NCBI GenBank assembly: GCA_014729085.1
Contig: WJKM01000008.1
Location: 163 to 64,162, forward strand
DNA from: Candidatus Dojkabacteria bacterium
GTDB taxonomy: Bacteria > Patescibacteriota > Dojkabacteria > B142 > WJKM01
Length of the DNA stretch: 64,000 nucleotides
Reading direction: 5' to 3'
Shown here one piece after another: positions 5,616 through 52,952 of this stretch. Position 1 is the stretch's first letter, and every line of letters begins with the position of its first letter. The position numbers were made by a program, and so were the translations under genes. The notes beneath the pieces were generated by a model that was given only the letters and a program-made list of their open reading frames with translations, ran no database searches and was not told the origin of the DNA.

Positions 5616-5885
5616 AATAATTGCGAGATTTGAAATCATACCAAAGAGTACAACAACTCACGTACAAGTTGGATTATTAACAGAAATTGATAAAGATAAT
5701 AACTGAAAAAAATATGATTAGTGAAAGAGTGTCGATGTCTCTTGATGATATTAAGAATTCAATTTAGGAGAATAGTTTTAAATGGTCTAAAGCACAATAC
5801 AGGTTATAGGATCTCTTCACCAAAGTTAATAGAAAGTAAAATGATGATTTTAAAATTTGTTAATTAAATTAAAAAATTATTAATA

Positions 5886-6215
5886 ATGAAGTTAACTACA
5901 GCGGGTAATATTCAGAGCTCAAATGTCAGTGAAGAAGAATTAAGAGAAGCTTTTGCAAATGATAGGGAAAGAGGAGAATTCATAATTCTGAGTCAAGGGC
6001 CTCAGCAATATATCCAAGCAGCAGGTGAAGGAAATGATCCTTATACATTAGAGTATAGAGATGGAGACCGAGAAAGGCATTTTCAATGTACCTCTCCGGT
6101 AACCAAGGATAAGGTAGAAACTGTTTTTATTCAGTATTTGAAGAGAGATGAGTCCTGGAAAACCGATTTTTCATGGGAAAAAATGGATTTTAGACCTTGG
6201 TGGAAGTTTTGGTGA
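5886..6215 (+). CDS. Hypothetical small protein
   Basis: 109-aa ORF after a 270-bp intergenic region. No motif recognised. Confidence 0.35.
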   Translation: MKLTTAGNIQSSNVSEEELREAFANDRERGEFIILSQGPQQYIQAAGEGNDPYTLEYRDGDRERHFQCTSPVTKDKVETVFIQYLKRDESWKTDFSWEKMDFRPWWKFW

Positions 6216-6220
6216 ATTAA

Positions 6221-6844
6221 TTGTTTTTATTATTTACTATGGTTTTAAGCCTTTCAGACATAAGAGCAAATCCTGAAATTTTAACATTTAAAATTAGATT
6301 AAACTCTAAAGAAAAATTAACTCTTCGACCATTGGAGAAAGATGATTGCGAGTTATTGAATAGATTTCTTGAAGGTTTATCTGAACAGACTCGTGAATTC
6401 TACATCTATCCAAGTTATGATTTTTCTATGGCTAAAGAGTTATGTGATGCAATTAATCGTTATGATAAACTACGCTTTGTTCTCAATATTCATCCAAAGG
6501 AAGAGATTATTGCTCTTTTCGAATATAGTTTTGATATTCCCGAATCCGATCGAAATCGGTTTAAAAAATATGAAATAAATCTAAGTTTAGATAGGGATTG
6601 TAGGCTTGGCCCTTGTATCTCTGATGTTTTTCAAAATCGGGGTATTGGATCAGCCATTTTTCCTTATCTTATTGAAATAGCAAAACGTTTTCAGCAGAAG
6701 AGAATAATTCTCTGGGGAGGAGTATTTAAGGAAAATAAACTTGCAATAACCTTTTATGAAAATAATGGTTTTGAACATCTTGGGGAATTTGTTAACAGTG
6801 AAAATAAAGTATGTTTAGATATGATTTACAAAATATTCAATTAA
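6221..6844 (+). CDS. GNAT-family N-acetyltransferase
   Basis: Motif A is QNRGIGSAIFPYLIEIAKRF. The motif B region is AITFYENNGFEHLG. Confidence 0.6.
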   Translation: MFLLFTMVLSLSDIRANPEILTFKIRLNSKEKLTLRPLEKDDCELLNRFLEGLSEQTREFYIYPSYDFSMAKELCDAINRYDKLRFVLNIHPKEEIIALFEYSFDIPESDRNRFKKYEINLSLDRDCRLGPCISDVFQNRGIGSAIFPYLIEIAKRFQQKRIILWGGVFKENKLAITFYENNGFEHLGEFVNSENKVCLDMIYKIFN

Positions 6845-11837: not shown

Positions 11838-12656
11838 TTATTTCGTTTTATTTGTTAATGATTTGGTTAAGAAATTACTTAAAGTTTTCATATAGGAGTC
11901 TACCGGATAGTCTTCAGAATCTAATGGGTTTGTTCTTTCTTCTAATTCATCACCATCTTTAAATCCATCTCCGTCGGTATCCGCTAACGTTGGATCAGTA
12001 ATGTATCTGGCCCATGGTACAATATGCCCCCCTGTATGTCCTTCTTCACCATGATTAACCCAAGTTCCTTGTACCATTTTTCTAACCCATTCTACCTCTT
12101 CATTATCATCAATTCTGTCATTATCGCTATCTTTATCTTCTGGATCAGTACCTATTGCAACTTCATATCCATCAGGTAACCCATCTTCGTCAACATCTGG
12201 GTTGTATTCATCGGGATCTTCAGTTCCGATCAGTCCGTCTCTGTCATAATCTTCAGAGCTGGCATTTGGGTTGTTTGGATTAGTTCCTGCACGTAATTCA
12301 TCACCATCACTTACTCCATCCCCGTCACTATCCCATTTCAACGGATCAGTAATATATCTGGCATCTTCAACAAATCTACCGTCTACTGGTGTTCCGTTTA
12401 GTATCTTTTTATCCCAAAGTAATTCATCCCCATCAGTAATTCCATCTCCATCAGTATCAGGGTTTTCAGGATCAGTACCTATTGCAACTTCATATCCATC
12501 ACAAAGTCTGTCGCCATCTGAGTCCCAGTTGTTTGGATCTGGGTCTACCTCATTTAGTAAACCATCTAGATCATGATCAGTCGGCTGATAGGTTGGATCG
12601 TTGGTTGGAATATTTTCTAGTCTCCATTGCCACTGTGGTATTGGTAAATCCTCCAT
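11838..12656 (-). CDS. Thrombospondin type-3-like (TSP3) acidic calcium-binding repeat protein
   Basis: Many DxDxDGxxDxxE repeats ([48 protein letters not shown]). No N-terminal signal peptide in the called ORF. Confidence 0.6.
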
Positions 12657-12802: not shown

Positions 12803-13627
12803 ATGCACATAGACGCAATTAAAAATTTTCTTGAAAAGCTTGGACTTTCACAAGATGAAATTAAGATTTATCTAACATTGCTTATAAAAGGAAATTTATC
12901 AGTTTCTTCCATATCTCAAGAAAATAAAATTGAAAGAACAAAAGTTTATAGAATACTGGATAAGTTAATAAGTAAGGGATTTATCAATAAAATAGCCACT
13001 GAACTTGGAGATCTATTTCAGCCGGCTGGTTTTGAGGCTATTAAGTTAGCCGTATTAGCTAGAGAAAAAGAATTAGAGAGTCTTAAAGCGGAATTTTCAA
13101 ATTTTAAAAAGGATATAGAATTAGCTCAGAAAGCAGAAAAGACAATAGGTACAGATGTTAAATTTTATATGGGGAAGAGGGGAATAAAACAGATGGTTTG
13201 GAATGTAACTAAAGCAAATACTGAAATAAAAAAAATATTAAATAAAACGGCAATTAAATTTCTTGGTAAGAACTTCTGGAATGAGTTTCGAAATGCAAAT
13301 AGAATAAACGGACAATCTGCTCGAGCTCTTTACTCCAAGGAATACCTGGATAGTCTAGGTGAATTAAAAGCTGAATATACAGACGAAATGGTTGCACATT
13401 CAATACACCAAACTTACAAGTTTCTTCCCAAAGAAGTATTTGAAATTCGAAATTATGTTTTTCTATACAATGATAAGGTTGCAATCTTTAATTGGAGTCA
13501 AAACGAAATTTATGGAATAGAGATAAAGAGTAGAGATGTTTCTACCATGCTGAATCAAGTTTATGAGATGCTTTGGAATATTGCAGGCGAGGAACATACA
13601 ATCGATAAGATTTTAAAACAAGTATAG
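12803..13627 (+). CDS. TrmB-family transcriptional regulator (paralog 1 of 3)
   Basis: N-terminal wHTH reads IKIYLTLLIKGNLSVSSISQENKIERTKVYRILDKLISKGFINKI. The conserved C-terminus is VAIFNWS...IYGIEI. Confidence 0.65.
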   Translation: MHIDAIKNFLEKLGLSQDEIKIYLTLLIKGNLSVSSISQENKIERTKVYRILDKLISKGFINKIATELGDLFQPAGFEAIKLAVLAREKELESLKAEFSNFKKDIELAQKAEKTIGTDVKFYMGKRGIKQMVWNVTKANTEIKKILNKTAIKFLGKNFWNEFRNANRINGQSARALYSKEYLDSLGELKAEYTDEMVAHSIHQTYKFLPKEVFEIRNYVFLYNDKVAIFNWSQNEIYGIEIKSRDVSTMLNQVYEMLWNIAGEEHTIDKILKQV

Positions 13628-13661: not shown

Positions 13662-14489
13662 ATGCACCTAGATAAAGTAAGAAGTTTTCTAGAAAAGTTA
13701 GATTTAACTCATGAGGAAATAAAAATTTATTTAGCTTTGATTAAGCATGGGAATCTTTCCGCATCAGATTTGTCCAAGGAAACTAAGGTAGAAAGAACCA
13801 AAGTTTATCGTTTGTTGGATGATTTAATCGGGAGGGGTTTTGTTAATAAAATTGGGACTGAATCAGGTGATGTATTTCAAGCAGAAGGCGAAGAGTCCGT
13901 TAAATTAATTCTTTTAGAAAAAGAAAGAGAGTTAGAAAATTTAAAAAATTCTTTAGATGCAGTACAAGAAAATTACAAACTTCTTAAATCGGGAAGAGAA
14001 ATCAAAACAGATGTTAGATTCTTTATGGGTAAACGTGGTGTAAAACAAATGGTTTGGAATGTTACGAAAGCTAAATCAGAAGTTCGTAAAATGTTAAATA
14101 AAACTGCTTTAAAATATTTTGGACGAAAGTTTTGGAAGGAATATAAAAAGTCGGTAAAAAAGGGAGGACAACAGCATAAAGCATTATATTCAGAAGATTA
14201 TATCGAAAGTTTAAAAGGATTTAAGATCCAAAGTATTAAGCAGCAGGTTGTATCTCCTGAATATCAAACTTATAAATATATTTCAAAAGAATATCTGGAA
14301 ATTAACGATTATATATTAGTTTATGATAATAAAGTTGCTATTTTTAATTGGAGTGATGTTCATATTTATGGGATTGAGATATTAAGCGAAGGATTTGCTG
14401 CAATGCAGAAGCAGATGTTTGATATCTTATGGAATATGGGAAAAGAAGAACATAAGTTGGATAAAGTTCTAGCTAAAATTGAAGATTAA
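13662..14489 (+). CDS. TrmB-family transcriptional regulator (paralog 2 of 3)
   Basis: Clear paralog of 12803..13627 along the whole length (MHLDKVRSFLEKLDLTHEEIKIYLALIKHGNLSASDLSKETKVERTKVYRLLDDL). Confidence 0.65.
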   Translation: MHLDKVRSFLEKLDLTHEEIKIYLALIKHGNLSASDLSKETKVERTKVYRLLDDLIGRGFVNKIGTESGDVFQAEGEESVKLILLEKERELENLKNSLDAVQENYKLLKSGREIKTDVRFFMGKRGVKQMVWNVTKAKSEVRKMLNKTALKYFGRKFWKEYKKSVKKGGQQHKALYSEDYIESLKGFKIQSIKQQVVSPEYQTYKYISKEYLEINDYILVYDNKVAIFNWSDVHIYGIEILSEGFAAMQKQMFDILWNMGKEEHKLDKVLAKIED

Positions 14490-14543: not shown

Positions 14544-15083
14544 TTAAAAGCTGTTTGGATCAAGAGGATTTGTTTCATTATTTTTTTCTTCCTTGTCAGA
14601 TTTTCCGTCTCCGTCTGTATCATAGAGAGTTGGATCAGTATATACGTTAAAAATAGGACTTTGATATCTAACTTCGTCTCCATCAGTAATTCCATCTCCA
14701 TCTGTATCTGGATTTGAAGGATCGGTTGGTGAGAAATGTTTCCATATTCTTTCTCCAGCAGAATCGCGCCAACCTAGGTCTATAATACCGAAGTATTCGT
14801 CTTGATTATGTAAACCATCAGCGTCAGGGTCGTCTAGTAAGCCATAGTCAAGATTCCCAAAGTATTTAAGTTCCCATGAATCTTTAAGTCCATCGCCATC
14901 ACTATCAACATTGGCTCTGAAGTTTTCCACTGTGGCAGTCAAATCGGGGGTTGGTAATGGAGTTTCTGTTGGATCTTCAGTAGCTAGGGGAGTTTCAGTA
15001 GTAGCTCCAGTTGTACATCCTGCTATTAATAGTAATGATGCAAGTAAAGCGCTCCCCCATACTAATTTATTTTCCTGTTCCAT
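14544..15083 (-). CDS. Lipoprotein with TSP3-like calcium-binding repeats
   Basis: [26 protein letters not shown] has lipobox IAGC. Acidic repeats [24 protein letters not shown] and [12 protein letters not shown] follow. Confidence 0.6.
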
Positions 15084-15288: not shown

Positions 15289-16122
15289 ATGCATATAAAC
15301 ATTATTACTAGATTTCTAGAAAATTTAGATTTATCTAAGGAAGAAATCGAGGTATATGTTACCTTGCTTGATAATCCAGATATTTCTATTTCAGATTTAT
15401 CCCATGAACTAAGTATTAATAGATCAAAAGTATATAGAACACTGGATAGCCTTATTAATAAAGGATATGTGAATAAAGTATCATCGGAAAGTAAGGATTT
15501 ATTTAAAGCCAGAGGTTTTGAGTGTATAAAGCAGGCAGTATATGAAAAAGAAAAAGAGGTCGAAGCAATGAAAGAAGAATTAAACAAGATTGAACAGAAT
15601 TTTCAGTTGTTCGGATCAGGGGCAGATTTAAATATAGATGTAAAATTTTACCAGGGAAAACGGGGTATAAAACAGATGTATTGGAATGTCGCTAAATCCA
15701 AAACTGAAGTAAAAAAAATTTTGAATAAATCAGCTATTGGTTTTTTAGGAAGGCAGTATTGGGAAGATATGGTAAAGGAGCAAAAGTTAAATCAAACACA
15801 AATAAGGGTATTGTATTCCGAGAGTTTTTATAATTCAATAAAAAAAATAGATAAACAAAATTTCCGAAATTACTTTGCTCCTCCTAGCTTACAGACATAT
15901 AAATTTCTTCCAGAAGAAGTATTCAAGATAGAGAATTACTTCATATTATATGAAAATAGGACTACCGTGTTTAATTGGCATGAGAGAAGCATTTATGGGA
16001 TAGAAATTTTAAATCCGGAAGTTGCATCAATGTTATCGCAGATGTTCGACATCTTATGGAATATGGGAGGTAAGGAACATACAATTGAAGATTTGGAAAA
16101 AAGAATACTTCAAGAAAATTAG
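15289..16122 (+). CDS. TrmB-family transcriptional regulator (paralog 3 of 3)
   Basis: Paralog of the two upstream TrmB-like genes (EIEVYVTLLDNPDISISDLSHELSINRSKVYRTLDSLINKGYV). Confidence 0.65.
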   Translation: MHINIITRFLENLDLSKEEIEVYVTLLDNPDISISDLSHELSINRSKVYRTLDSLINKGYVNKVSSESKDLFKARGFECIKQAVYEKEKEVEAMKEELNKIEQNFQLFGSGADLNIDVKFYQGKRGIKQMYWNVAKSKTEVKKILNKSAIGFLGRQYWEDMVKEQKLNQTQIRVLYSESFYNSIKKIDKQNFRNYFAPPSLQTYKFLPEEVFKIENYFILYENRTTVFNWHERSIYGIEILNPEVASMLSQMFDILWNMGGKEHTIEDLEKRILQEN

Positions 16123-26243: not shown

Positions 26244-27653
26244 ATGGCTAAATTGTTTTCTAAGAAAAAGACAAGTCTAATTTTAACTATGTTTTTAGTT
26301 ATTTTTTCAGTATTGATTGTGTTTGTTCTAAGCAGAAGAAACAAGGAGTTAAATACTAGGACAAACGCCTCAAATCAACTATCAAATTATATTATTCCAA
26401 AGAAAGTATATGTGTTGATATATAATCCAACTTTACAGCTGGAAGGTAATCCTACTCTTGTAGAATTTAAAAATTGGAATAATCCTAATGAACTAGTCCA
26501 ACAACTTGAGAATTGGTTTTTGGTCACTTCCGAAGAAAGAGTTCGTTATAACATAGTCTCTATCGAAGAAATTGATGCTATCCCTATCAAAGAAGATGGA
26601 TTTGAATATACTCAAGCTTCCTATTTAGAATGTTTAGAGGACGAAACTGAGTGTCACAAACCGGACATAGCAGATTATTCGGAAATTTTTAATAATAATT
26701 CTATATGTGAAAAATTTAATAACGGTGAGTTTGATGAATTATGGATGATTGCAGGTCCGTGGTTTGGATTTTATGAATCTAGACTAACTGGTCCAAATGC
26801 ATTTTATTATAATTCCCCTCCATTAAGAGGCACAAGTTGTAATAAACTTTTACCAATTATGGGTTTTAATTATGAAAGAGGTCTTGAGAATATGGTTCAT
26901 GATTATGGACACAGATTAGAGGATACGATGAAAAAAGTATATGGTTCATGGGATAGAAATTCATCAGCACATAATTGGAACAAGTTTGCATTAGTTGACT
27001 CCCAAGCTAATAGTTTTGATTTTAGTGGATGCGGTTTCTGTCATTTTCCACCTAATGCTATTGATGATTATGCTTATTCAGACACGAGAAACGTAAGATC
27101 TTATTGTAATCAATTTTACAATTATCCCAATTTGGACAACTTGAGTGATAATACAGATACTATTTCCTGCGATGTTTGGGGTTGTAATGAACTTGGATAT
27201 TTTAGATGGTTGTTTAGGCATATGCCGAAATATCAAGGCTATGGTCCAGATAAAAAATTAAATGATTGGTGGATGTATCTTATTGATCCCAATATTGTTC
27301 TTACAAACATAGTCCCAGATTATTGCCCAACTATTACTCCTACTCCTACTCCTACTAAAACTGCAACTAGTAGTCCCGTGATTACTGGTACCTCTACAGA
27401 AGACTCGACGCCTACAGAAGATCCGGAAACAACTATTACATATATTCCTACTTCAACTGAAATGGTTACAGAATCACCTATTGATAAAAAATCTGATTTT
27501 AACAAAGATGGAAAGGTTAATATAGTTGATTTTAGAATATTTATCGAATGCTATAAAGCTGAAACTTCGGAATGTGATTTAAATCGGGATACAAAAGTTG
27601 ATCTATATGATTTTGTTGAATTTCGCATGGATTATCTTCAAGAAAATAGTTAA
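26244..27653 (+). CDS. Membrane-anchored secreted protein with Thr/Pro linker and canonical C-terminal dockerin
   Basis: TM anchor and an unknown ~320-aa domain, then linker TITPTPTPTKTATSSPVITGTSTEDSTPTEDPETT. The dockerin reads DFNKDGKVNIVDFRIF...DLNRDTKVDLYDFVEF, a textbook DxNxDGxVNxxD pair. Confidence 0.55.
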   Translation: MAKLFSKKKTSLILTMFLVIFSVLIVFVLSRRNKELNTRTNASNQLSNYIIPKKVYVLIYNPTLQLEGNPTLVEFKNWNNPNELVQQLENWFLVTSEERVRYNIVSIEEIDAIPIKEDGFEYTQASYLECLEDETECHKPDIADYSEIFNNNSICEKFNNGEFDELWMIAGPWFGFYESRLTGPNAFYYNSPPLRGTSCNKLLPIMGFNYERGLENMVHDYGHRLEDTMKKVYGSWDRNSSAHNWNKFALVDSQANSFDFSGCGFCHFPPNAIDDYAYSDTRNVRSYCNQFYNYPNLDNLSDNTDTISCDVWGCNELGYFRWLFRHMPKYQGYGPDKKLNDWWMYLIDPNIVLTNIVPDYCPTITPTPTPTKTATSSPVITGTSTEDSTPTEDPETTITYIPTSTEMVTESPIDKKSDFNKDGKVNIVDFRIFIECYKAETSECDLNRDTKVDLYDFVEFRMDYLQENS

Positions 27654-39921: not shown

Positions 39922-40896
39922 ATGAAATTTAAATTCACAAATATTGGTGAAGATAGAAAAAGTAAACAGAAGTTAATTGTTGTTCTACTTTTATGTTTTC
40001 TTTTTTTAGTAATTGCCAATTCTATAGTTTTTGTTAGCAACTACTCAAAATATACAAGAACTGAAAAAACAGAAGCTTCCGATATAGAAAGTAAGTATTG
40101 GAATCATGATTTGTTTGATGGGCGATTGGAAGCGGTAAGCTGTGAACGTATAGTTGGATGGATAGGAACTAAAGATGATTTGATGGCACAGATGCCAGTT
40201 TTTTTTACTATAGGAGGTCCTTATGAGGGAAATGGAGTTGTGTTTAATCCCAATACAATAGCAGATATAAAACGAGAGAAAGCTGTATGTGATTTTTTGG
40301 ATGGTACTCTTAGTATGGCTGAAGAATGTGTTACCTGCGAAGGTACATCTTGTAATCATGGGTTCGAAATCAATCTTCCCAATTATACCGACTCTCCAAT
40401 TTTTAATAATAGCTCTAATAATAAGGTTTACGCTTATGGTGTTTATAAAGGACAAATTGCAGCTATTATGGATGGTCCTAGTTTTTCAAAATTTTTTCTT
40501 GAAATTCCGGAAAATTGTGGCGATGGATGGGATGGAAATTCAGATGAAATACCTACTTATACTGAAACTCCTACACCAGGCCCGGTTGAAATTCCCGAGG
40601 GCGTTAATTTTGATTTTAATTTAGATACTTTGATTGATCTGAATGATTTTACTTTATTTGCAAATGGTTATAGGGAGTGTAACAAACCGGATAATCCTGA
40701 CTCACAAAATTCTCCCGAATGCGAAATGTATAAAAGTACAGATGCTACTTTTGATTTCGATTTTAATGATGATCAAAAAGTTGATTTGAATGATTTCGTC
40801 ATTTTCGCACAAGTATATAAAGTTTGTAATAAACCAGGAGATACAGCAGCTCAAGACTCGACAGATTGTAATCAATATAAGGGAGGAGATAACTGA
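39922..40896 (+). CDS. Membrane-anchored secreted protein with C-terminal dockerin-like double EF-hand module (family member 1)
   Basis: TM, then the NYSKYTRTEKTEAS motif and an unknown ~190-aa domain. The dockerin-like part is DFNLDTLIDLNDFTLFANGY...DFNDDQKVDLNDFVIFAQVYKVC. Confidence 0.55.
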   Translation: MKFKFTNIGEDRKSKQKLIVVLLLCFLFLVIANSIVFVSNYSKYTRTEKTEASDIESKYWNHDLFDGRLEAVSCERIVGWIGTKDDLMAQMPVFFTIGGPYEGNGVVFNPNTIADIKREKAVCDFLDGTLSMAEECVTCEGTSCNHGFEINLPNYTDSPIFNNSSNNKVYAYGVYKGQIAAIMDGPSFSKFFLEIPENCGDGWDGNSDEIPTYTETPTPGPVEIPEGVNFDFNLDTLIDLNDFTLFANGYRECNKPDNPDSQNSPECEMYKSTDATFDFDFNDDQKVDLNDFVIFAQVYKVCNKPGDTAAQDSTDCNQYKGGDN

Positions 40897-41174: not shown

Positions 41175-42566
41175 ATGAAGAAACTAAAATTCAAAAAAAT
41201 AGATGATAAGCAGACATATAGGAAACTTCTGCTGACAATATTTTTATTTGTCTTGGTAATTGTATTTTCAGTTTCAATTTATTTTGTACATAACTATTCA
41301 AAGTATAGTGAAATTAAAAAGAGTGAGGCAGCTGGCAATAATTGCTGTAATGAACCGGATTATAAAGTATGCGATGAAGACCATGAATGGGATGAAGGAT
41401 ATTATGCTTGTTTAAACGAAGAATGTGAGAAATGCGGTGGGGCTTCATGGGGTTCATGTAATGAAAATTGCAAGTGTGATCCTGGTGAGGATCATGTTAA
41501 GTGTCCTTCTGATTGTACAGATGAAGGTGTGGATGTACTAAAGCAAATAAATTTTGATTTTAATCTTGACGAAATTTTGGACTTATCTGATTTCACCCTA
41601 TTTGCTGAGGGATATAAGATTTGTAATTCAACGACAACAGAAAGTCCGCAAACAACCGAAGAATGTAAAGATTATAAAGAAGCAGACAGATCTTATGATT
41701 TTGATTTTAATGAAGATACTTGGCTTGACTTAAAAGATTTTGTTCATTTTGTTGAAGCATATAAAGTATGCAATTCAACGACACAAGACAATTCTCAAGA
41801 TAGTATCGAATGCAAGAAACTTAAGGGATTAGGACCTGAACCTACATGCGAAATTAGTCCAACATCTACTGCAGAACCCACTAGTGACCCAACAGATGAT
41901 CCTAGTCCAACAGCAGAACCAACAAATCCTCCTGATTTTGAGGATCCTGAAGGTAGTACTTCAATTGGTGGCGATTTTGAAGGTGAGTTCTATCATGATG
42001 GAGCTCCTGAATTGTATATTGCTAAGGACTGGAAAACCTGGTATGAAGATGGCTGTACAGCCGGGAAGTGTGGTACTTTTAATTGTGATGGGAGTCCAGC
42101 TTATTGCAGACGTCCTGAATTTAAAAAAGCGGATGGTACAAGGTTTAGAAATAGGGTAAGAACTGGACAGTATTCTCAGCAATGGTTTAATACTTTCGGT
42201 ACACATAATGCAGGTATTTATAGAAAAGTAAATGTTGGAACCGATAAACAGCTTAAAATGCAAGCATATGGATCGCAATGGACAGATGATGGTAGTGGTG
42301 GGTCAACCATTATGAATGGTAGAATTGGTATAGATCCAACTGGAGGCACGGATCCTAATAGTGATTCAGTTATATGGACAGACTGGACTCCCCTACCAAA
42401 TGTCAAACCCGAAGACAGTGGTGAATGGAAGAAGCTTGAAATAGAGGCTACGAGCGAAGTTGATGAAGTGACAATTTTCATTATGTCGAATAATCAGTAT
42501 CCCCTTACAAATAATGATGTCTATTGGGATGATGTTATATTATATATTGATGGTGAAAAAATCTAA
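41175..42566 (+). CDS. Membrane-anchored secreted Cys-rich protein with internal dockerin-like module and C-terminal CBM-like beta-sandwich domain (family member 2)
   Basis: TM and NYSKYSEIKKSEAA, then a Cys-rich EGF-like stretch. The dockerin-like part is DFNLDEILDLSDF...DFNEDTWLDLKDF. A PT linker follows, and the C-terminus ends ...NNDVYWDDVILYIDGEKI. Confidence 0.55.
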   Translation: MKKLKFKKIDDKQTYRKLLLTIFLFVLVIVFSVSIYFVHNYSKYSEIKKSEAAGNNCCNEPDYKVCDEDHEWDEGYYACLNEECEKCGGASWGSCNENCKCDPGEDHVKCPSDCTDEGVDVLKQINFDFNLDEILDLSDFTLFAEGYKICNSTTTESPQTTEECKDYKEADRSYDFDFNEDTWLDLKDFVHFVEAYKVCNSTTQDNSQDSIECKKLKGLGPEPTCEISPTSTAEPTSDPTDDPSPTAEPTNPPDFEDPEGSTSIGGDFEGEFYHDGAPELYIAKDWKTWYEDGCTAGKCGTFNCDGSPAYCRRPEFKKADGTRFRNRVRTGQYSQQWFNTFGTHNAGIYRKVNVGTDKQLKMQAYGSQWTDDGSGGSTIMNGRIGIDPTGGTDPNSDSVIWTDWTPLPNVKPEDSGEWKKLEIEATSEVDEVTIFIMSNNQYPLTNNDVYWDDVILYIDGEKI

Positions 42567-42581
42567 ATTATTTATTGATTA

Positions 42582-43289
42582 ATGAAGAAGTTATATCAAA
42601 AGAATCAGGTCAAAAAAATTTTGGTCATAATTCTATTTTCAATTCTCCTTATTACCTTATTTCTTTCTGCTTTATTTGTTCAAAATTATTCTAGATATAG
42701 TGAGGTTAAGGAATCTGAGGCCTCTTCCTCAAAACCGAATATAGATTTCAATACAGATAAGAATATAGACTTAAATGATTTCAGAAATTTTGTAGAGGTT
42801 TATAGAATATGTAATAGTTCTGACACAGATAATCCACAGAATAGCTCTCAATGTATCTCACAAAAAGCTGATTATGATTTAGATGATAATGGGAAAGTTG
42901 ATATTCAGGATTTTGTTGTATTTGCAGATGGATACAAGATTTGTAATAAGCCTGGAGATTCGAATGCACAGGATTCTAATGAATGTAAGGCATATAAAGG
43001 AAGTGAGGACGATATAACCATTGAACCTTCCCCTACTAGTACAGAAGACTTAGATGGAGAATGCACTTGCCATGTAACAGGTAAAGGTTGTGGGAAGAAG
43101 GGTTTATTTAAAGGTTGCGAAGATTTTGATGAAACTGAGTCAAGATGTGTGAAAGAGAACGAATGTACCGAATCCAATTGTTGTACTGAGGCAGAAAAGG
43201 TTGCTGAACAAGAAGCCGAAAATAGAGGAGCTGTTCTAGAAAGTTTTGAATGTAATGCAGAGGTGCAGTGGACAGAAGGGGGCTGTTGA
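42582..43289 (+). CDS. Membrane-anchored secreted protein with dockerin-like module and Cys-rich C-terminus (family member 3)
   Basis: TM and NYSRYSEVKESEAS. The dockerin-like part is DFNTDKNIDLNDFRNF...DYDLDDNGKVDIQDFVVF. The C-terminal 100 aa contain about 14 Cys. Confidence 0.5.
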   Translation: MKKLYQKNQVKKILVIILFSILLITLFLSALFVQNYSRYSEVKESEASSSKPNIDFNTDKNIDLNDFRNFVEVYRICNSSDTDNPQNSSQCISQKADYDLDDNGKVDIQDFVVFADGYKICNKPGDSNAQDSNECKAYKGSEDDITIEPSPTSTEDLDGECTCHVTGKGCGKKGLFKGCEDFDETESRCVKENECTESNCCTEAEKVAEQEAENRGAVLESFECNAEVQWTEGGC

Positions 43290-45039: not shown

Positions 45040-46320
45040 TTGCGGAAAGAATTATTTAGGAATTTTCGCATATATTTAATATTTTATTTCAAAATTATGG
45101 AACAACTTCCAGTCTTTGATTTCTACAACGATCAAGCTATAGATACTCCAGATTTTCCCTCAAGTTTAATAGAAGCAGATATAGATGGAGATGGTGACTT
45201 AGACATCTTGGCATTAAATGCGCAGAGAGTAGACAGTGTAGATGGTGATTATTTTAATCACTATATTTTACTTAACGAAGAAGGCAAATTCCAATTCGAA
45301 AACCCTCTCATGTTTCAATCTGGTGAGAGACTTGGGGATGCAGCCTTTGGAGATTTAGATAACGACGGTGATTTAGATATTTACACAACATCCTATTGGA
45401 GAGGTGAAGATAGTGTATATCTAAACACAGGTAATCAGTTTAATATTTTAAATCAGAATGAGACTTATGAACATGAAGATGGTTTAGTTGAGCTTGTAGA
45501 TATAGATGATGATGGAGATTTGGATGCAATTGTGACAACGCAGTCTCATAATTACCAAGATCCACCTCAAAACCCAACCCAAGTAAGGTTGAATGATGGT
45601 AGTGGCCAGTTTGCAAATTCTGTAACCCTTGGTAGGAGCTCAAGGACTGTTGATACTGCAATTGCAGATGTGGACGGTGATGGTGATCAAGATTATTTTC
45701 AAAGATCATATGAGAGAGGTTTGGAATTTTTTGAAAATCAGGGGGATGGCAGTTTTGCTGAGGGTGAAGCTATAAATATAGGGACCACAATCTACTCTTT
45801 TGATTTAGGAGATATTGATGGAGATGGTAAGGATGATTTAGTTGTATTGCATCAAGATAAGCCTGAAGAAGTACTAGAGATGGGAGCTTTATCATGGTTG
45901 GAACGGAATGGAGATAGTTGGCAAATTGAAGGTGATCATTTTTGGAATGGATTAATTCCTTATAATCAGGATATAGAACTTGGAGATGTAGATGGAGATG
46001 GGGATTTTGATGTTTTAATTGGTGGTGGAGCAGAAAAAAGTTATTTTCCGGAAGTTCATTATGATGTTCAACCTGCGAGGGTGGTGCATAATGCCGGTTT
46101 ATCTCCCTTTGAAAATGTAGTGGAGAAAGAGTTAAAGAGAAATAATATAGAAACTCCAATAATTGATCCATATGATTTGAGTTTAGTTCTAGCTGATATT
46201 GATGGAGACGGTAAAGATGAACCGATTATATCTAGTTTTTTTAATGAAGGGCAGGATATAACAATATGGGATAATGATCCATTATTATTTTTACCGGTAG
46301 TAGTTAGAAATTTTAGCTAA
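45040..46320 (+). CDS. FG-GAP / VCBS-type repeat (beta-propeller) protein
   Basis: Repeated DIDGDGDLDI, DLDNDGDLDI, DIDDDGDLDA, DVDGDGDQD and DIDGDGKDD calcium-binding propeller repeats. The start is ambiguous: Met20 at 45097 is an alternative, and there is no obvious signal peptide. Confidence 0.55.
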   Translation: MRKELFRNFRIYLIFYFKIMEQLPVFDFYNDQAIDTPDFPSSLIEADIDGDGDLDILALNAQRVDSVDGDYFNHYILLNEEGKFQFENPLMFQSGERLGDAAFGDLDNDGDLDIYTTSYWRGEDSVYLNTGNQFNILNQNETYEHEDGLVELVDIDDDGDLDAIVTTQSHNYQDPPQNPTQVRLNDGSGQFANSVTLGRSSRTVDTAIADVDGDGDQDYFQRSYERGLEFFENQGDGSFAEGEAINIGTTIYSFDLGDIDGDGKDDLVVLHQDKPEEVLEMGALSWLERNGDSWQIEGDHFWNGLIPYNQDIELGDVDGDGDFDVLIGGGAEKSYFPEVHYDVQPARVVHNAGLSPFENVVEKELKRNNIETPIIDPYDLSLVLADIDGDGKDEPIISSFFNEGQDITIWDNDPLLFLPVVVRNFS

Positions 46321-46384: not shown

Positions 46385-48178
46385 TTAACCACAATTCTTC
46401 TGTTTATATAAAATAATAAAATTTTTAAAGTCAATAATATCAACTTTTCCGTTTCTATCACTGTCTTTTGGTCCACAACCTTCCACAATAGGTGAGTCCG
46501 AACAGGTTTTACTGTAAACATCTTTAAAAGGCTCAAAGTCATAGAGATCGACTTTATTATTATTGTTATGGTCAAGTTGACCGCAAATTACTCCTATTGG
46601 TGTACTAACCGCTGAAGATGTTACAGTAACAGTTGGAGTTGGTGTTTTAACTGTCGAAGATGTTACAGTAACAGTTGCTGTTGGAGTATTAGTTACTGAT
46701 GGACTTGTGGTAGTAGTTAAGGTAGGGCTATGTGAAGGTTCACTTGTTTGTGTTGGTGAATTAAGTACTTTACCTATTGTTATAAGATTTCCCGTCGGTT
46801 TTGGAGAAGACCAGTGTGTATAATTTCCTTCTATAAATGTTCCAATTATATCAGTAGTGAAATTTCCAATAAAATTTAATTGGCCAACTGTTAGATTGGA
46901 ACTTGTATATATTTCAGTTTCCGAAATATTGGAATTACTAATTGAGTATTTAGTTATTGTCTGGTATTGATTATTTCGTCCGTATATCTGTTTAATTCCG
47001 TCTTCTATAATTATTTCATAAGGCTGGAAAAGACCTAGATGATGGTAATTATCGATTTCCCATTTACTACCATCCCAGCTAGCTATTTCTAAGTATGGTG
47101 TATAAGGCATATTGCCAACTGTATTTATTTGTTTGAACCTTGTGAATGCAATGACTGGCTTGTTATTATAAATATCAACAGCCATTCTGGTATTCCCGCC
47201 TTCTTTTCCAAATTCCAGTTTGTTTTCATAACCAAATATTTCACAGTGCTGTTCAAATTCACTTCTGGTTATAGTACTTCCAAGGTTATGCTTTGAGGCT
47301 GAATATATATTATTATCTTCGAAGTTGAAGAATATATAATAGTGCTTATTAAAATAGTCGTTGTGATTTTGATGGATTCCAAAAGTAATATGAAGTCCTT
47401 CGGGATCGCTTTCGTAATGTATGGCTTTTGTATAAACTGTATTCCAAACATCTTCACTTTTCCCAGGGTCAATCAATTTATGAGATGTCCAGGTTTCACC
47501 ATTATCAGTTGATTTTAAATAATACTCTGGTTCATACCAATTTGAAAGCGGAGGATTAATAACACCATTCCCTTTGGTTTTTCGAAATAAATAGTATAAA
47601 TCTCCGTTTTTTGCTTTATATGCAGCTCCATATGTAGCTTCATTTGTACCGTTTATTTCATTGATTTCCCAGTTCGTAATATCAGTTGTGGAAGAGCTTG
47701 TTGCTTGAATAACCTTATGATTTGCATGCATGGAATATAAAACATGTAGTCGTCCCATACTATCCTTTAAGATCTGAGGATAATTATGTGAGTCTGGTTG
47801 AACTGGGGAGTCTAGAATTTTATGTGGCTCTGACCAATTCTCTAGATTATGATCATAATACATAATATAAGGCGAACAAGATGATAGCCCTTCTTTTTGA
47901 TCATTTGAAAAAACCACAAATGTTCGATTTGAGTCTGTATCATAAATTCCAGAATATATTTGTGTTTTTTGTCTGGCATAAGTTTCAACTATATTTTCGG
48001 CTATTATCTGTGTTTCGTATTGATCAGACGAAATTTGAGCACCGGATTTTTTAATATTCAGTTCAGATTGTTTTTCGATTTTAAAGGAAATAAGTAGAGA
48101 TGTCCCAATTAAGAATACAACTATGAAAGATAACAGAATAACGAAATGAAATTTTTTAGATGTTTCAGCTTTATGCAT
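46385..48178 (-). CDS. Membrane-anchored BNR/Asp-box (sialidase/glycoside-hydrolase-like beta-propeller) protein with Thr/Pro linker and C-terminal dockerin-like module
   Basis: TM anchor and the Asp-box YLKSTDNGETW (SxDxGxTW). The linker is TSPSVTNTPTATVTVTSSTVKTPTPTVTVTSS. The C-terminus reads CGQLDHNNNNKVDLYDFEPF...CGPKDSDRNGKVDIIDFKNFIILYKQKNC. Confidence 0.6.
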   Translation of the reverse strand: MHKAETSKKFHFVILLSFIVVFLIGTSLLISFKIEKQSELNIKKSGAQISSDQYETQIIAENIVETYARQKTQIYSGIYDTDSNRTFVVFSNDQKEGLSSCSPYIMYYDHNLENWSEPHKILDSPVQPDSHNYPQILKDSMGRLHVLYSMHANHKVIQATSSSTTDITNWEINEINGTNEATYGAAYKAKNGDLYYLFRKTKGNGVINPPLSNWYEPEYYLKSTDNGETWTSHKLIDPGKSEDVWNTVYTKAIHYESDPEGLHITFGIHQNHNDYFNKHYYIFFNFEDNNIYSASKHNLGSTITRSEFEQHCEIFGYENKLEFGKEGGNTRMAVDIYNNKPVIAFTRFKQINTVGNMPYTPYLEIASWDGSKWEIDNYHHLGLFQPYEIIIEDGIKQIYGRNNQYQTITKYSISNSNISETEIYTSSNLTVGQLNFIGNFTTDIIGTFIEGNYTHWSSPKPTGNLITIGKVLNSPTQTSEPSHSPTLTTTTSPSVTNTPTATVTVTSSTVKTPTPTVTVTSSAVSTPIGVICGQLDHNNNNKVDLYDFEPFKDVYSKTCSDSPIVEGCGPKDSDRNGKVDIIDFKNFIILYKQKNCG

Positions 48179-48188: not shown

Positions 48189-49235
48189 TTATCTATTGGC
48201 AAGTGAATATTTAGTTGCTCTCCCCTTCCCTTCTACTTTTATTAGCTTTTTTTTCAAAAGTTCATTTAGATCTCTATAAGCTGTCATTGTCGATACATCA
48301 AACATTTGAACATAATCCTGCCTTTTAACCGATGGTATAGTTTGCAGATACTTGAGGATTTTGAGTTGTCTTTTATTCAAATTTAAAAAGGGTTGATGTG
48401 TTCTTTTCTTGTTAGTTTCAATTTGCTTAGTAATTCTTTTATACCGATTTTCAAATTCAGCAGCTATATGTTCTGTAAATTTTTCGATCCAAAAGGTAAT
48501 ATTTCCAGTTGGAGAGTTTGATGACTTTTCCCATTGTTCCTTGAATTCGTCTTGATTTAAATCAAAAAGTTTTGGAACAGATAAATAAGTAATAGTTGAA
48601 TATTCATTTTTTTGTAAAAGAAAGTCACATATTGCAATAATTGTTAGTTTGTTCAAATTTGAAAAAGGAATTATCCTGATAAGTCTGTATATAGTTACAG
48701 CAGTTCTAATTATTGGATTAATTCTATCTGTATTGTTTTTGTACCATTCGAACGTGTTGTCCAGTTCGGCTTCTATTTCATTAGTTTTTATTGATTGATC
48801 CCCATAAGTTAACCAGTCATCAAATGAAGAGTCGATATCGGTTCCGACACGGAATTTTGCCTCCCAAGGTTCCTTCCAGGAATAAATTAATAATTTATTT
48901 AGATGAAGAACTAGATCTTTGTTTATATTTACATAATTATCGTAACGATTTGATCTAATGTATTCGATAGCATTCTTAAAATTATTTAAAATCTTATTTT
49001 TCAAGTCATTTTGAGTGTCTATCTTTCCAACTAAAAACTTTTCCGTATCTTTAAGTGTTATATTTAAACCAAGCATATGTGCTGTATGGAAAATATCGAT
49101 TTTCTTTTGTTTTTTATTTAATTGGGTTTGTATCTCGTCACTTAAATCTAATTGGGATATTTTACATTTAGTAGTCTCGAGATCTATTAAATTATTTACA
49201 ATTGTATTGGTCAATTGATAGTTAATTTGCCTCAT
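48189..49235 (-). CDS. Fic-like protein with degenerate Fic motif and C-terminal winged-helix DNA-binding domain
   Basis: The C-terminus KRQLKILKYLQTIPSVKRQDYVQMFDVSTMTAYRDLNELLKKKLIKVEGKGRATKYSL is the typical Fic C-terminal wHTH. In place of HPFxxGNGR the protein has IIPFSNLNKLTIIAI. Confidence 0.4.
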   Translation of the reverse strand: MRQINYQLTNTIVNNLIDLETTKCKISQLDLSDEIQTQLNKKQKKIDIFHTAHMLGLNITLKDTEKFLVGKIDTQNDLKNKILNNFKNAIEYIRSNRYDNYVNINKDLVLHLNKLLIYSWKEPWEAKFRVGTDIDSSFDDWLTYGDQSIKTNEIEAELDNTFEWYKNNTDRINPIIRTAVTIYRLIRIIPFSNLNKLTIIAICDFLLQKNEYSTITYLSVPKLFDLNQDEFKEQWEKSSNSPTGNITFWIEKFTEHIAAEFENRYKRITKQIETNKKRTHQPFLNLNKRQLKILKYLQTIPSVKRQDYVQMFDVSTMTAYRDLNELLKKKLIKVEGKGRATKYSLANR

Positions 49236-49372
49236 TAATTATAAGTTTTATAGATTTTATGTAAATCAAGATTTCTAATATATTATACATGAAATGCTAA
49301 TTAAGCAAATATTATAATTCAAAATTATTAGCTCAAATACATATAAAATTTATGAATTTTAATTACATCAAT

Positions 49373-49831
49373 TTATGAAGAAGATTGAAAACCTGTAGTT
49401 TCTGGAGATCGATTCACAACTAACCAATATAGACCTACTTTTTTTACAACCTCAGAAAACTTGTCAAAATCTACCGGTTTTTGGATAAAACTGTTTGCAC
49501 CAAGTTCATACCCTTTTTCTATATCTGCTTGAAGATTAGAGGAAGTGAGTATGATAACAGGTATATTTTTTGTTTTAGGATTGTCTTTTATTAGCTTTAG
49601 AACCTCTAAACCATGTAGTTTGGGAAGTTTGAGATCAAGAAGAATTAATTTGGGATTTTCGTTTTTATTTCTATCTGAATATTGATTTTTACAAAATAAA
49701 AAGTCTAGCGCTTCTTCGCCATCACTAACTAAATGAATATTATTAGATATATGGTTGTTTCGGAGAGATAATAGTATTAATTCTGCATCATTTGGATCGT
49801 CTTCGATTAATAAAATTTCAACTGTGTTCAT
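49373..49831 (-). CDS. Single-domain response regulator (CheY/Rcp1-like REC only)
   Basis: ILLIEDDPNDAELI, the phospho-acceptor LILLDLKLPKLHGLEVLK, and T/K residues in ILTSS...QKP. Confidence 0.8.
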   Translation of the reverse strand: MNTVEILLIEDDPNDAELILLSLRNNHISNNIHLVSDGEEALDFLFCKNQYSDRNKNENPKLILLDLKLPKLHGLEVLKLIKDNPKTKNIPVIILTSSNLQADIEKGYELGANSFIQKPVDFDKFSEVVKKVGLYWLVVNRSPETTGFQSSS

Positions 49832-49902
49832 ATTGAATTCTTAAGATGTAGGCTATATTAAACATTGCATATTAAACAGAATGATCTGTGTGTCAACTTG
49901 AT

Positions 49903-50328
49903 TTATTTTTGCACAAGAGACCAATATAAACCTGCTTGTTTTACTGCTTCTGAGAACTGGGTAAAATCAAGAGGTTTTTGAATATAGCTATTTGCTCCTA
50001 GTTTATATCCATCAATCATATCTTTATCAAGTTCGGATGAAGTAAAAATCGCGACCGGAATATTTTTAGTATTATCATTTTCTCTGATATTTTTGAGGAC
50101 TTCTAAACCGTTAATTTTGGGAAGTTTAAGATCTAGCAGAATCAGTTGTGGTTTGTTCTCGTCAGTCCTATTTGAATATTTTCCTTGGCAATGCAGGAAA
50201 TCCAAGGCTTCCTGACCGTCAGTAACCAGATGAATTTTATTTAGAATATTATTTCGGCGCAGGGTTAGAAGAGCAAGTTCAGCATCATTTGCATCATCTT
50301 CAACTAATAATATTTCAATATTTTCCAT
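49903..50328 (-). CDS. Single-domain response regulator (REC only), paralog
   Basis: ILLVEDDANDAELA...LILLDLKLPKINGLEVLK...IFTSS...QKP. It is a paralog of 49373..49831. Confidence 0.8.
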   Translation of the reverse strand: MENIEILLVEDDANDAELALLTLRRNNILNKIHLVTDGQEALDFLHCQGKYSNRTDENKPQLILLDLKLPKINGLEVLKNIRENDNTKNIPVAIFTSSELDKDMIDGYKLGANSYIQKPLDFTQFSEAVKQAGLYWSLVQK

Positions 50329-50342
50329 GACTACAATTAAAA

Positions 50343-52811
50343 TTACAAGTTAAACTTAATATAGAAAGTCGCCCCTTTACCGGGTTTTCCGACGGCTTTT
50401 ATACTACCATTATGTTTTTCAATAATTCGTTTCACTGTAGCAAGGCCTATGCCAATACCTTCAAAATCTTTTGCTTTATGCAATCTCTGGAAAATACCAA
50501 AGAGTTGATTTTGGTATTTCATATCGAAACCTGCTCCATTATCTTTGATATAGAAACCGGTTTCATTTTGTTTTAAAGGTCCTATCTCAATCTTAGCATT
50601 TTCTGTATTGCTTGTATATTTGATTGCATTGGAGATTAGGTTACGAAATACTGTTGTCATTAATATCTCATCACATTCTAAAGTAGGTAGTTCATGTATT
50701 ATTACTTTAATTTCGTATTCGGAAATTTCATCTTCAAATTCAGATACTACTTGAGTTACTATTTCGTTAAGATCAAGCTTGGTGAGAGTAAGCGCTTTTC
50801 TTCCAATTCTAGATAGATCGAGCAATCCATCAATTAGTTTATTCATCTTTGTTATGCCATTAATAATTTTTTCAAAATATGTTTTAGCTTTGTTAGGCAA
50901 TTTATCTTTATATTCAGTATTTATTATTTGCGAAAAACCCCCTATATGTCTCAGTGGGGCTCTTAAATCATGTGATACAGAGTAGGTAAAAGCTTCAAGC
51001 TCCTCATTTGCAATTTTTAATTCCTTGGTTCTTTTACGAACCCTTTCGTCTAACTCCTTACTTAGTTTTCTATATTTTGATTCACTCAATTTCAGCTCTT
51101 TAGATGCTGTTTTTAGTTCAACAATATTTCCTATTATTTCAGAAATAGTGGTTGTTAGATTGATTGCATTGTCCGAAAATAGGTTACTATTCTTATTATC
51201 TTGTTTCGTAAGTCTGGAAAGTTCAAGTTTACCTATTATTTTGTCATTCGAACTAATAGTATGAGATATTGAATTCTCACTCTCTGAATAATTTCTAGAT
51301 AAATAGGCCTGGTTATTTACTATTATGCGTGCTGTGATTTGATCATTATTTACTGAAATTTTTGGAATTATATCCGCAATTTTTTGAATAGTCTCATTGA
51401 TTGTAAGGTCAGTTTTTTGAAGAAGTTTAGTAATATTATATAGGCAATTCAGTTCTCTAACCCGCTGGAATAATTCTTGAGTCCGCTTTTCAAGGTTTTC
51501 TTTCAATTGTTGTTCTTCGGTTACATCTTTATAAATAGCTACTATTTCTCCGGTAGATAATTTATATACATAATTATCTCTCCATCCAGCTATTCTTTTA
51601 TCTTTATACATTTTTAAGGGAAAGTGTTTGGGTTTTCCAGTTTCCCATACTTTTTGAAAAACTTCAAAAAGTCCGAATTTTTTTATACTTGGGAATATTT
51701 GTAAAACGCTTTTGCCAATTATGTCTTCTCGTTTAATTTTTTCAGTTTTTTCTGCTGCTTTATTAAAATCTTTAAAGATAAAGTCACTTCCATTATCTCT
51801 AGCCTCATATATTGCTACACAGTTGCTCATATTATCAAATAGTTCTTTAAATTTTTGTTCTGTTAAAAGTAGTTTTTCTGAGGTTTCCTTTTCGAAAGTT
51901 ATATCTCTTATAATTAACGTAAAATAGATTTCGTTTTCAAATGTATATTTACTTGGAGAAATTTCAATATTAATTATTCTTCCATATCTATCCTTACCGT
52001 ATAATCTGCTTACATTATTCTTATTTTTTATATTAGTAATTATGTTTTGAAATTTAGTTTTATTTAGCAATATTTTGGATATGTGTTTATCTAAGAGTTC
52101 GGATTCATTGTAATTAAAGATTTTTTTTGCTGCTTCGTTTAAGGATTTGATTTTAAAAGAAGAGTCGATAGAAATAATTGCTTCATTAACATTTTCTATC
52201 ACTGAATTTACGAAGTTTTCGTGTTTAGTAAATTGCTTAACTCGAATATTATTTAATGTATTTGTATTCCATTTGTATATAAGAGTAATGATGACAATGA
52301 TACTAATAAAACTAAAAATTCCATAAAAAATATCCTCTAGGGTTAAGTTTGGATGAATATATGAATATAAAGGCAGAGTTAATAAAAAAAGTAGATATGT
52401 AAAAGACAATCTTTTGATATCCTGAAATATACAGGAAATTAATACTGGTACTGCTAGAAAAGTCAACATATCTGGTAAATCTAGTCCTATATATAAAATT
52501 AGTAGAAATAAAATCCAGACTAAAATCGTGGATCCCCAGAAAATATAATTTTTTTTACTTAAAATAAAAATAATAAATAAAATAAGAATTATTAGTAAAT
52601 TTTTATCTAATAATCTAAAACTGTAGGGATTAAATATATGAGAGGATATTGTAGATAAAATTAAGAAAGACATTAATGTAAAGGACGTAAGGCTTAAGAT
52701 TTGAGATTGACGACGTAATTTAGGATCAGGAATTGTTTTAGAAGGTTTAATAATAAACTTTTTAAATTTATTAATAAATCTGAGGATTGAATTTTTAAAT
52801 TTATCCTCCAT
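50343..52811 (-). CDS. Sensor histidine kinase with polytopic N-terminal sensor, PAS domains, HisKA and HATPase_c
   Basis: About 6 TM helices and two PAS-like regions. The H-box is SHDLRAPLRHI. The HATPase N-box is NLISNAIKY and the G-boxes are KDNGAGF / GIGIGLATV. Confidence 0.8.
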   Translation of the reverse strand: MEDKFKNSILRFINKFKKFIIKPSKTIPDPKLRRQSQILSLTSFTLMSFLILSTISSHIFNPYSFRLLDKNLLIILILFIIFILSKKNYIFWGSTILVWILFLLILYIGLDLPDMLTFLAVPVLISCIFQDIKRLSFTYLLFLLTLPLYSYIHPNLTLEDIFYGIFSFISIIVIITLIYKWNTNTLNNIRVKQFTKHENFVNSVIENVNEAIISIDSSFKIKSLNEAAKKIFNYNESELLDKHISKILLNKTKFQNIITNIKNKNNVSRLYGKDRYGRIINIEISPSKYTFENEIYFTLIIRDITFEKETSEKLLLTEQKFKELFDNMSNCVAIYEARDNGSDFIFKDFNKAAEKTEKIKREDIIGKSVLQIFPSIKKFGLFEVFQKVWETGKPKHFPLKMYKDKRIAGWRDNYVYKLSTGEIVAIYKDVTEEQQLKENLEKRTQELFQRVRELNCLYNITKLLQKTDLTINETIQKIADIIPKISVNNDQITARIIVNNQAYLSRNYSESENSISHTISSNDKIIGKLELSRLTKQDNKNSNLFSDNAINLTTTISEIIGNIVELKTASKELKLSESKYRKLSKELDERVRKRTKELKIANEELEAFTYSVSHDLRAPLRHIGGFSQIINTEYKDKLPNKAKTYFEKIINGITKMNKLIDGLLDLSRIGRKALTLTKLDLNEIVTQVVSEFEDEISEYEIKVIIHELPTLECDEILMTTVFRNLISNAIKYTSNTENAKIEIGPLKQNETGFYIKDNGAGFDMKYQNQLFGIFQRLHKAKDFEGIGIGLATVKRIIEKHNGSIKAVGKPGKGATFYIKFNL

Positions 52812-52880
52812 ATAAATATTTAAGATTGAAAAATATATTTCATTTTAGCCTAATACTAATTTCATGAAAAGCTATAAATA

Positions 52881-52952
52881 AGCTGGCTATGAGATTTGAA
52901 CTCATAACCTTTCCCTTACGAAGGGAATGCTCTACCATTGAGCTAAGCCAGC
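52881..52952 (-). tRNA. tRNA-Thr (anticodon CGU)
   Basis: Minus strand: GCTGGCT-TA-GCTC-AATGGTA-GAGC-A-TTCCC-TTCGTAA-GGGAA-AGGTT-ATGAG-TTCAAAT-CTCAT-AGCCAGC-T. All four stems pair perfectly. The T-loop is TTCAAAT and the anticodon loop has CGT at positions 34-36. No CCA is encoded. Confidence 0.8.

Follow-up and report, generated by a model that had tools for sequence, protein, structure and literature searches.

Families PL25 and PL42 of the polysaccharide lyases (PL) belong to the BNR_4 superfamily of seven-bladed β-propellers, which PL24 joins by fold. In the secreted PL25 ulvan lyase PLSV_3936 (5UAM/5UAS), Arg204 is the neutralizer of the substrate carboxylate, Tyr188 the base and His123 the acid, with His143 adjacent; Asn122, Lys125, and Tyr246 bind the substrate, and four residues, His208, His264, Cys266, and His278, coordinate a structural Zn2+ (PMC13193363; PMC8377490). 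Family PL42 includes FoRham1 (7ESK), an L-rhamnose-α-1,4-D-glucuronate lyase with an anterior set of His85, His105, and Arg166, and BT3686 (5MUK/5MUL), formerly placed in glycoside hydrolase (GH) family GH145, whose His90 and His110 have been equated with His85 and His105 of FoRham1 (PMC8377490). PL24 is represented by LOR_107 (6BYP), also seven-bladed and with a His/His/Tyr/Arg active site (PMC8377490). Here we compare with these enzymes the product of one gene (positions 46385..48178, minus strand) in a 64,000-nucleotide stretch of DNA, hereafter the window, which spans positions 163 to 64,162 of contig WJKM01000008.1 from Candidatus Dojkabacteria bacterium, a member of the candidate phyla radiation (CPR). 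We conclude that this product is probably a polysaccharide lyase of the cell surface, belonging to the BNR_4 propeller superfamily.

The gene and the domain that carries this assignment are as follows.

46385..48178, minus strand: whole gene, 597 amino acids plus stop, with an ATG start and its stop codon at 46385-46387; a single open reading frame (ORF) fills the span
46769..48019, minus strand: predicted seven-bladed β-propeller, residues ~54-470, Pfam BNR_4, with a PL25/PL42/PL24-like fold
47489..47512, minus strand: Asp-box STDNGETW, residues 223-230, present as a single copy

Pfam assigns residues 119-376 to BNR_4 (PF15892; 52.0 bits against a gathering threshold of 27.3, E = 8.7e-14), a domain that is present in all close homologues, and gives a marginal match to BNR_2 (31.9 bits against a cut-off of 31.4). 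The best sequence match among solved structures is 5UAM. A single-sequence phmmer search reached it at E = 1.8e-4, covering 130 residues only, an 8-sequence subfamily profile at E = 8.5e-22, and a 35-sequence family profile at E = 2.4e-56 with an end-to-end alignment. Next come the Bacteroides structures of GH145 (now PL42) 5MUK, 5MUM, 5MVH, and 4IRT together with FoRham1; the former GH145 structures, including BT3686, were matched at E = 1.6e-8 to 2.4e-14. The PL24 structures were missed by sequence profiles.

Residues 40-475 were modeled with AlphaFold2 from the subfamily alignment. The model scored 82.3 for pLDDT (predicted local distance difference test) and 0.87 for pTM (predicted template modeling score), and is all-β with 28 strands in seven groups of four. 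When this model was compared with the Protein Data Bank (PDB) using Foldseek, the top rank was taken by the PL25 structures 5UAM and 5UAS (E = 7e-17, TM [template modeling] score 0.72-0.73), followed by PL42 7ESK (TM 0.71) and 5MUM, 5MUL, and 5MUK (TM 0.62-0.65). Similarity to the PL24 structures 6BYP, 6BYT, and 6JQ9 was lower (TM 0.60; for 6BYP, a root-mean-square deviation [rmsd] of ~7 Å and E ~6e-13). The modeled fold is that of the PL24, PL25, and PL42 lyases and not the six-bladed propeller of GH33 sialidases.

The active-site comparison is based on one hidden Markov model to which the protein, 5UAM, and 154 family representatives were aligned. The 5UAM sequence was rebuilt from a printed alignment, in which the chain index plus 24 gives the published residue at nine of the nine numbered positions, and the BT3686 chain numbering was checked against the His90 and His110 of PMC8377490. 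All five PL25 active-site residues are kept, and each is conserved among the representatives at the percentage given.

47786..47788, minus strand: His131, equivalent to PL25 His123 (catalytic acid/base) and BT3686 His90; 97% His
47726..47728, minus strand: His151, equivalent to PL25 His143, FoRham1 His105, and BT3686 His110 (supporting His; PMC8377490); 95% His
47630..47632, minus strand: Tyr183, equivalent to PL25 Tyr188 (catalytic base); 95% Tyr
47582..47584, minus strand: Arg199, equivalent to PL25 Arg204 (neutralizer of the uronate carboxylate); 95% Arg
47432..47434, minus strand: Tyr249, equivalent to PL25 Tyr246 (substrate binding); 91% Tyr

His110 of the Dojkabacteria protein, equivalent to PL25 His95, is likewise conserved (94%). 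BT3686 has H, H, Y, and R in the columns of His131, His151, Tyr183, and Arg199, so that the anterior His/His/Arg (plus Tyr) of PL42 falls in the same columns (PMC8377490), and the spacings H-20-H and Y-16-R are the same in PL25, FoRham1, and this protein. The polar residues conserved across the family are essentially this lyase set together with Asp129 and the Asp-box. The Asp-box columns are themselves conserved (S 90%, D 84%, G 91%, W 90%), and the motif is therefore not a chance occurrence. Arg199 is the only one of eight propeller Arg residues that is conserved (at least 80%), and no Glu is conserved in the family.

The initial annotation had read the Asp-box and the surrounding β-rich sequence as a sialidase-like or glycoside hydrolase-like propeller that would add a glycan-directed activity. 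The Asp-box and the membership of the sialidase/BNR superfamily are borne out by the family-conserved columns, the BNR_4 and BNR_2 matches, and the all-β model, and a carbohydrate-active role is plausible; the hydrolase part of the reading is contradicted by the seven blades and the lyase residues. For an exo-sialidase or GH33-type hydrolase, one expects a BNR propeller of six blades, in which sialic acid is hydrolyzed by means of an Arg triad and a Tyr/Glu nucleophile. GH33 enzymes such as NanA and NanH do share the Pfam clan and have an Asp-box in a propeller blade, the box in the Dojkabacteria protein is canonical, BNR_2 lies just above its cut-off, and the family profile matches sialidases at E = 1e-8 to 1e-4, although over only ~50 residues around the Asp-box. 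In the structural ranking, sialidases (NanA, NanH, and the P. gingivalis sialidase) appear from rank 23 down with TM 0.39-0.45 and rmsd 9-13 Å, compared with 0.73 for PL25. A strict and a relaxed pattern (S.D.G..[WFY]) both find one Asp-box, whereas GH33 proteins typically have 3-5, and none of the eight propeller Arg residues is followed by Ile-Pro, so there is no (F)RIP motif. The single conserved Arg excludes an Arg triad, and the Tyr/Glu pair is absent; the conserved residues are instead those of the lyases. We therefore rejected the sialidase because of the number of blades, the order of the structural matches, and the lack of its catalytic residues, and consider it highly improbable.

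The kinship with BT3686 and the former GH145 structures, in sequence and in fold (see above), also brings into consideration a retaining α-L-rhamnosidase of the GH145 type, which acts through a His on the posterior face, or else hydrolysis or another reaction on uronate glycans in the anterior pocket. In BT3686 the GH145 catalytic residue, His48, sits ~42 residues before His90 (PMC8377490). No His occurs between residues 12 and 109 of the Dojkabacteria protein, and the position aligned with His48 is approximately Phe90, the alignment being approximate there; the posterior-His rhamnosidase was rejected on this basis. The posterior function has moreover been described as a recent innovation of Bacteroides (PMC8377490). 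Taken together, these GH145-type and anterior-pocket alternatives to a lyase appear distinctly unlikely.

Outside the propeller, the protein carries three further segments.

48083..48151, minus strand: N-terminal hydrophobic segment, residues 10-32 (FHFVILLSFIVVFLIGTSLLISF), 23 residues following a Lys-rich start
46595..46762, minus strand: Thr/Ser/Pro linker, residues 473-528 (56 residues), 70% Thr, Ser, and Pro
46388..46594, minus strand: dockerin-like module, residues 529-597 (69 residues), with two repeats of a predicted Ca loop and helix

The initial annotation does not include the hydrophobic segment. The Kyte-Doolittle 19-residue maximum of the protein (2.9) lies at residue 12, and residues 10-32 are probably a signal-anchor or signal peptide, which would export the protein and probably anchor it. 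The linker holds a degenerate internal repeat, TVTVTSSxVxTP. The C-terminal module has an EF-hand-type loop in each of its two repeats, DHNNNNKVDLYD starting at residue 536 and DSDRNGKVDIID at residue 572, and the repeats are bracketed by Cys532/559 and Cys568/596. The same module ends three other ORFs of the window, 176-1327(-), 1819-3057(-), and 1324-1788(-), with 24 invariant columns and 48-56% identity. The Thr/Pro linker and dockerin-like module of the initial annotation are thus borne out, as is the Cys-bracketed C-terminus that it had described as common to this protein and nucleases of the endonuclease/exonuclease/phosphatase (EEP) superfamily.

The architecture resembles that of type I dockerins (PF00404), which span ~65 amino acids and contain two tandem Ca loops of 12 residues (D-x-N/D-x-N/D...D-x-x-D), each with a single helix after it; as there, the module is C-terminal and follows a Thr/Pro linker. 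A profile of the four window copies aligned by hhalign with nine canonical dockerins at 96.3% and E = 1.5e-9 over 55 columns covering both repeats. The nine were drawn from the propeller relatives and from window ORF 26244-27653 and include proteins annotated with PF00404. A profile search of the PDB with the module yielded EF-hand proteins (E = 0.0025) and weak matches to dockerins, and nothing else. On the hhalign comparison the module is homologous to dockerins, and its modeled loop-helix, loop-helix arrangement is the F-hand layout of dockerins and not a four-helix EF-hand pair. It differs from the type I domain in the four invariant bracketing Cys and in an Asn of loop 1 at a position usually occupied by Asp or Gly. 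The four Cys probably form two stabilizing disulfides. The Cys-bracketed variant was not found outside the contig in a profile search of 5.8 billion proteins, in which the short query also missed itself, nor in GTDB genome contigs or JGI metagenome contigs; these searches were pattern- or word-seeded with a 69-residue query, and absence is weak evidence.

Two of the ORFs that share the module, 176-1327(-) and 1819-3057(-), match Pfam Exo_endo_phos (~1e-14) and have N-terminal anchors and Thr/Ser/Pro linkers; membership of the EEP superfamily does not by itself make them nucleases. The third, 1324-1788(-), adjoins both EEP genes and encodes 154 amino acids with little beyond an anchor and the four-Cys module. 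Another anchored protein, of 469 amino acids (26244-27653, plus strand), has a Thr/Glu/Pro linker and a canonical Dockerin_1 domain (24.0 bits against 22.9), so the contig has at least two dockerin flavors; the body of this protein (~350 amino acids) has no Pfam or PDB match.

In an exhaustive HMMER scan covering 1.84 billion cluster representatives, 3,299 were related to the protein at E ≤ 1e-3, of which 145 passed E ≤ 1e-30; ~18 representatives at E < 1e-100 form its close clade. Eight close relatives, 37-47% identical to it, came from a word-indexed search. Where the source is named, the relatives come from metagenome-assembled genomes (MAGs) labeled Bacteroidetes, Planctomycetes, Deltaproteobacteria, and Gammaproteobacteria, and the clade is thus sporadic across several phyla. 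Four of them (P0002, P0003, P0004, and P0006) start with signal or lipoprotein-like peptides. Three (P0004, P0006, and P0007) end in canonical dockerins at the same position, P0007 being flanked by other dockerin proteins, and a C-terminal paired Ca-loop pattern occurs in 12 of the 154 representatives. One further relative (ORF 5941-8481 of contig L007, 846 amino acids) combines BNR_4 with Dockerin_1 and the carbohydrate-binding module (CBM) CBM_4_9 (PF02018), plus a marginal CBM_4_9_1 match (27.8 against 27 bits). A propeller followed by a dockerin is therefore a recurrent architecture, and the association with a CBM supports a carbohydrate-active role. The surroundings of the relatives are varied: P0002 has transporters and regulators as neighbors, P0003 has an F5/8 type C protein and a GH10 fragment nearby, and P0008 (groundwater metagenome contig L004) is followed by two large ORFs (2009-6435; 803 and 672 amino acids) without any Pfam match. 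Genomic context is uninformative on the substrate.

Several observations count against the assignment as a surface lyase of this type. Identity to 5UAM is 20.7% over 353 columns, and to the PL42 structures 12-14%. The PL25 substrate residues Asn122 and Lys125 are replaced by Ser130 and Tyr133, in columns that are variable in the family, and two of the four PL25 Zn ligands, His208 and Cys266, by Gly203 and Thr265. No partner genes for unsaturated-uronate utilization lie in the window, near the gene or elsewhere. For Bacteroides GH145/PL42 proteins, which share the anterior residues, tests with a set of substrates revealed no lyase activity (PMC8377490), and conservation therefore does not prove lyase activity. 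The C-terminal module is below threshold for Pfam Dockerin_1 (PF00404; 15.2 bits against 22.9), as it is for the EF-hand Pfam models (best 21.5 bits against 25). An AlphaFold model of the module alone, with two helices, one after each loop, is poor (pLDDT 60.7); in a Foldseek search this model found nothing significant, a C. cellulolyticum dockerin coming first (E = 1.7) and then calmodulin and troponin. Finally, no Pfam match to a cohesin was found in the 20 non-housekeeping ORFs of the window that were scanned.

Some GH145/PL42 proteins are inactive in vitro with intact anterior residues (PMC8377490), which would also fit a noncatalytic propeller, a lectin or adhesin that binds glycans and keeps the cell, or the enzymes it works with, attached to a host or polymer. 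In epibiotic Patescibacteria, surface proteins with dockerin and VCBS domains have been put forward as mediators of adhesion to host glycans (PMC10633639), and seven-bladed lectins (PLL, PHL, and RSL types) are among the weaker structure and sequence matches, although their structural scores (TM 0.33-0.48) are far below those of the lyases. What is conserved at 91-97% in 154 diverse representatives is the full catalytic set and not just binding residues, the pattern expected under selection for catalysis. The outcome foreseen by the initial annotation should sialidase residues be lacking, a purely binding or structural protein, thus gives way to a different and complete catalytic set, and we regard the lectin as unlikely.

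Returning to the lyase, we place the protein in BNR_4 with the catalytic apparatus of PL25 and PL42 but do not file it as either, because of the low identity to 5UAM and because none of its 154 closest representatives is close to 5UAM (at best 73 bits over 140 amino acids). PL25 enzymes are single-domain proteins (PMC13193363) and come from marine Proteobacteria or Bacteroidota, whereas this one comes from a CPR bacterium and adds a linker and a dockerin-like module. Because Asn122, Lys125, and half of the PL25 Zn site are replaced, the substrate is probably not ulvan. The other two Zn ligands are retained: His263 stands for His264 and His272 for His278. The close subfamily has invariant motifs of its own, EPE at residues 216-218, H-x2-H-N at 269-273, and His279, which map to window positions ~47342-47533, near the His264/His278 region of the PL25 Zn site, and may constitute an alternative metal or substrate site.

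By analogy with PL25 and PL42, we predict that the protein performs β-elimination. Once exported and probably anchored through the N-terminal hydrophobic segment, it would bind an acidic glycan on the anterior face of the propeller, as its homologues do. In a uronic acid substituted at O-4, Arg199 would neutralize the carboxylate, the pair His131 and Tyr183 would abstract H-5 (at C-5) and protonate the leaving O-4, His151 would support His131, and Tyr249 would help to hold the substrate, so that a metal-independent β-elimination would leave an unsaturated uronate end. The Thr/Ser/Pro linker is predicted to hold out the dockerin-type module with its two putative Ca2+ sites, and this module probably docks the enzyme, and likewise the EEP enzymes, to a protein partner or surface structure. 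The initial annotation had gathered these proteins into a dockerin-tethered surface toolkit for scavenging from host glycoconjugates and nucleic acids. The shared module agrees with that idea, which is still conjectural given the N-terminal anchor and the lack of a cohesin in the ORFs scanned. Dockerin-domain surface proteins have been reported in Patescibacteria and proposed to target host glycans (PMC10633639), and carbohydrate degradation has been attributed to Dojkabacteria MAGs (PMC7038595).

A bolder possibility, which we hold to be improbable, is that the clade constitutes a polysaccharide lyase family with a new specificity. In an ultra-small Dojkabacteria cell that probably depends on a host, such a lyase and the EEP phosphodiesterases would be mounted together on a disulfide-stapled dockerin scaffold peculiar to the lineage, and the lyase would cut uronic acid-containing surface polymers of a host or neighbor (capsule, exopolysaccharide, or cell-wall glycan) for attachment or scavenging. 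Under such a scheme, the binding partner of the dockerin-like modules might not be a classical cohesin.

The protein is identical to NCBI MBD3362530.1 (GF362_02315), from a 64.6-kb contig of Candidatus Dojkabacteria bacterium and annotated in the public record as a hypothetical protein; no NCBIfam model matches it. No competing ORF of at least 80 amino acids occurs on the opposite strand of the gene. Its G+C content is 33% against ~31% throughout the window, so nothing marks it as foreign. Upstream of it a same-strand run extends over 48189-52952(-).

52881-52952, minus strand: tRNA-Thr
50343-52811, minus strand: sensor histidine kinase, by sequence inspection
49903-50328 and 49373-49831, minus strand: two stand-alone receiver-domain-like proteins, by sequence inspection
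48189-49235, minus strand: protein with Fic and DeoR-type helix-turn-helix domains, by Pfam

The stop codon of the Fic gene is 10 nucleotides from the ATG of the lyase-like gene, and cotranscription of the two is possible. The strongest sigma70-like match (11/12) lies just upstream of the Fic gene at 49265..49238. A promoter and terminator scan found sites no more frequently than in shuffled sequence, so an operon structure is only suggested by the spacing.

On the other side, a plus-strand gene (45040-46320) runs convergently toward the lyase-like gene and encodes a protein with FG-GAP/VCBS repeats (FG-GAP_3, E = 1e-32); for epibiotic Patescibacteria, a role of VCBS-type proteins in adhesion to host glycans has been proposed (PMC10633639). 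Beyond it are three consecutive plus-strand genes (39922-40896, 41175-42566, and 42582-43289) for secreted or anchored proteins that have a transmembrane segment at the N-terminus and, after it, the conserved motif NYS[KR]Y[ST]. The first of these ends in a different Cys-containing dockerin-like repeat pair (...DLNDFTLFANGYRECNKP... / ...DLNDFVIFAQVYKVCNKP...), and the C-terminus of the second reads like a jelly roll or CBM. The trio has no significant Pfam or PDB match, the third protein giving a sub-threshold match to TMEM154 (17.7 against 30.3 bits), and PDB searches with three neighboring dockerin or “CBM-like” ORFs found nothing. Farther away, three paralogues of ~275 amino acids with near-identical N-termini (12803-13627, 13662-14489, and 15289-16122) are interleaved with bacterial TSP3-repeat (Ca-binding) proteins (11838-12656 and 14544-15083).

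The analysis corrects the functional call for this protein from “hypothetical protein” or “sialidase-like” to a PL25/PL42-like lyase active site, which shifts the choice of assay substrates away from 4-methylumbelliferyl-N-acetylneuraminic acid (4-MU-Neu5Ac) and toward acidic, uronate-containing glycans, followed by absorbance at 235 nm (A235). The propeller-lyase family is known, and the Dojkabacteria protein adds to it a member with a modestly unusual dockerin variant, which will not surprise a specialist in carbohydrate-active enzymes. For the organism, a likely polysaccharide lyase joins the short list of surface enzymes of a reduced-genome CPR bacterium, and the presence of one Cys-bracketed module on several secreted proteins of the contig hints at a common docking system. 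For the family, we found biochemical characterization only for PL25 and PL42 members (PMC13193363; PMC8377490) among ~3,300 BNR_4 cluster representatives, and clades that combine an intact catalytic set with a different pocket are therefore reasonable targets in the search for new lyase specificities.

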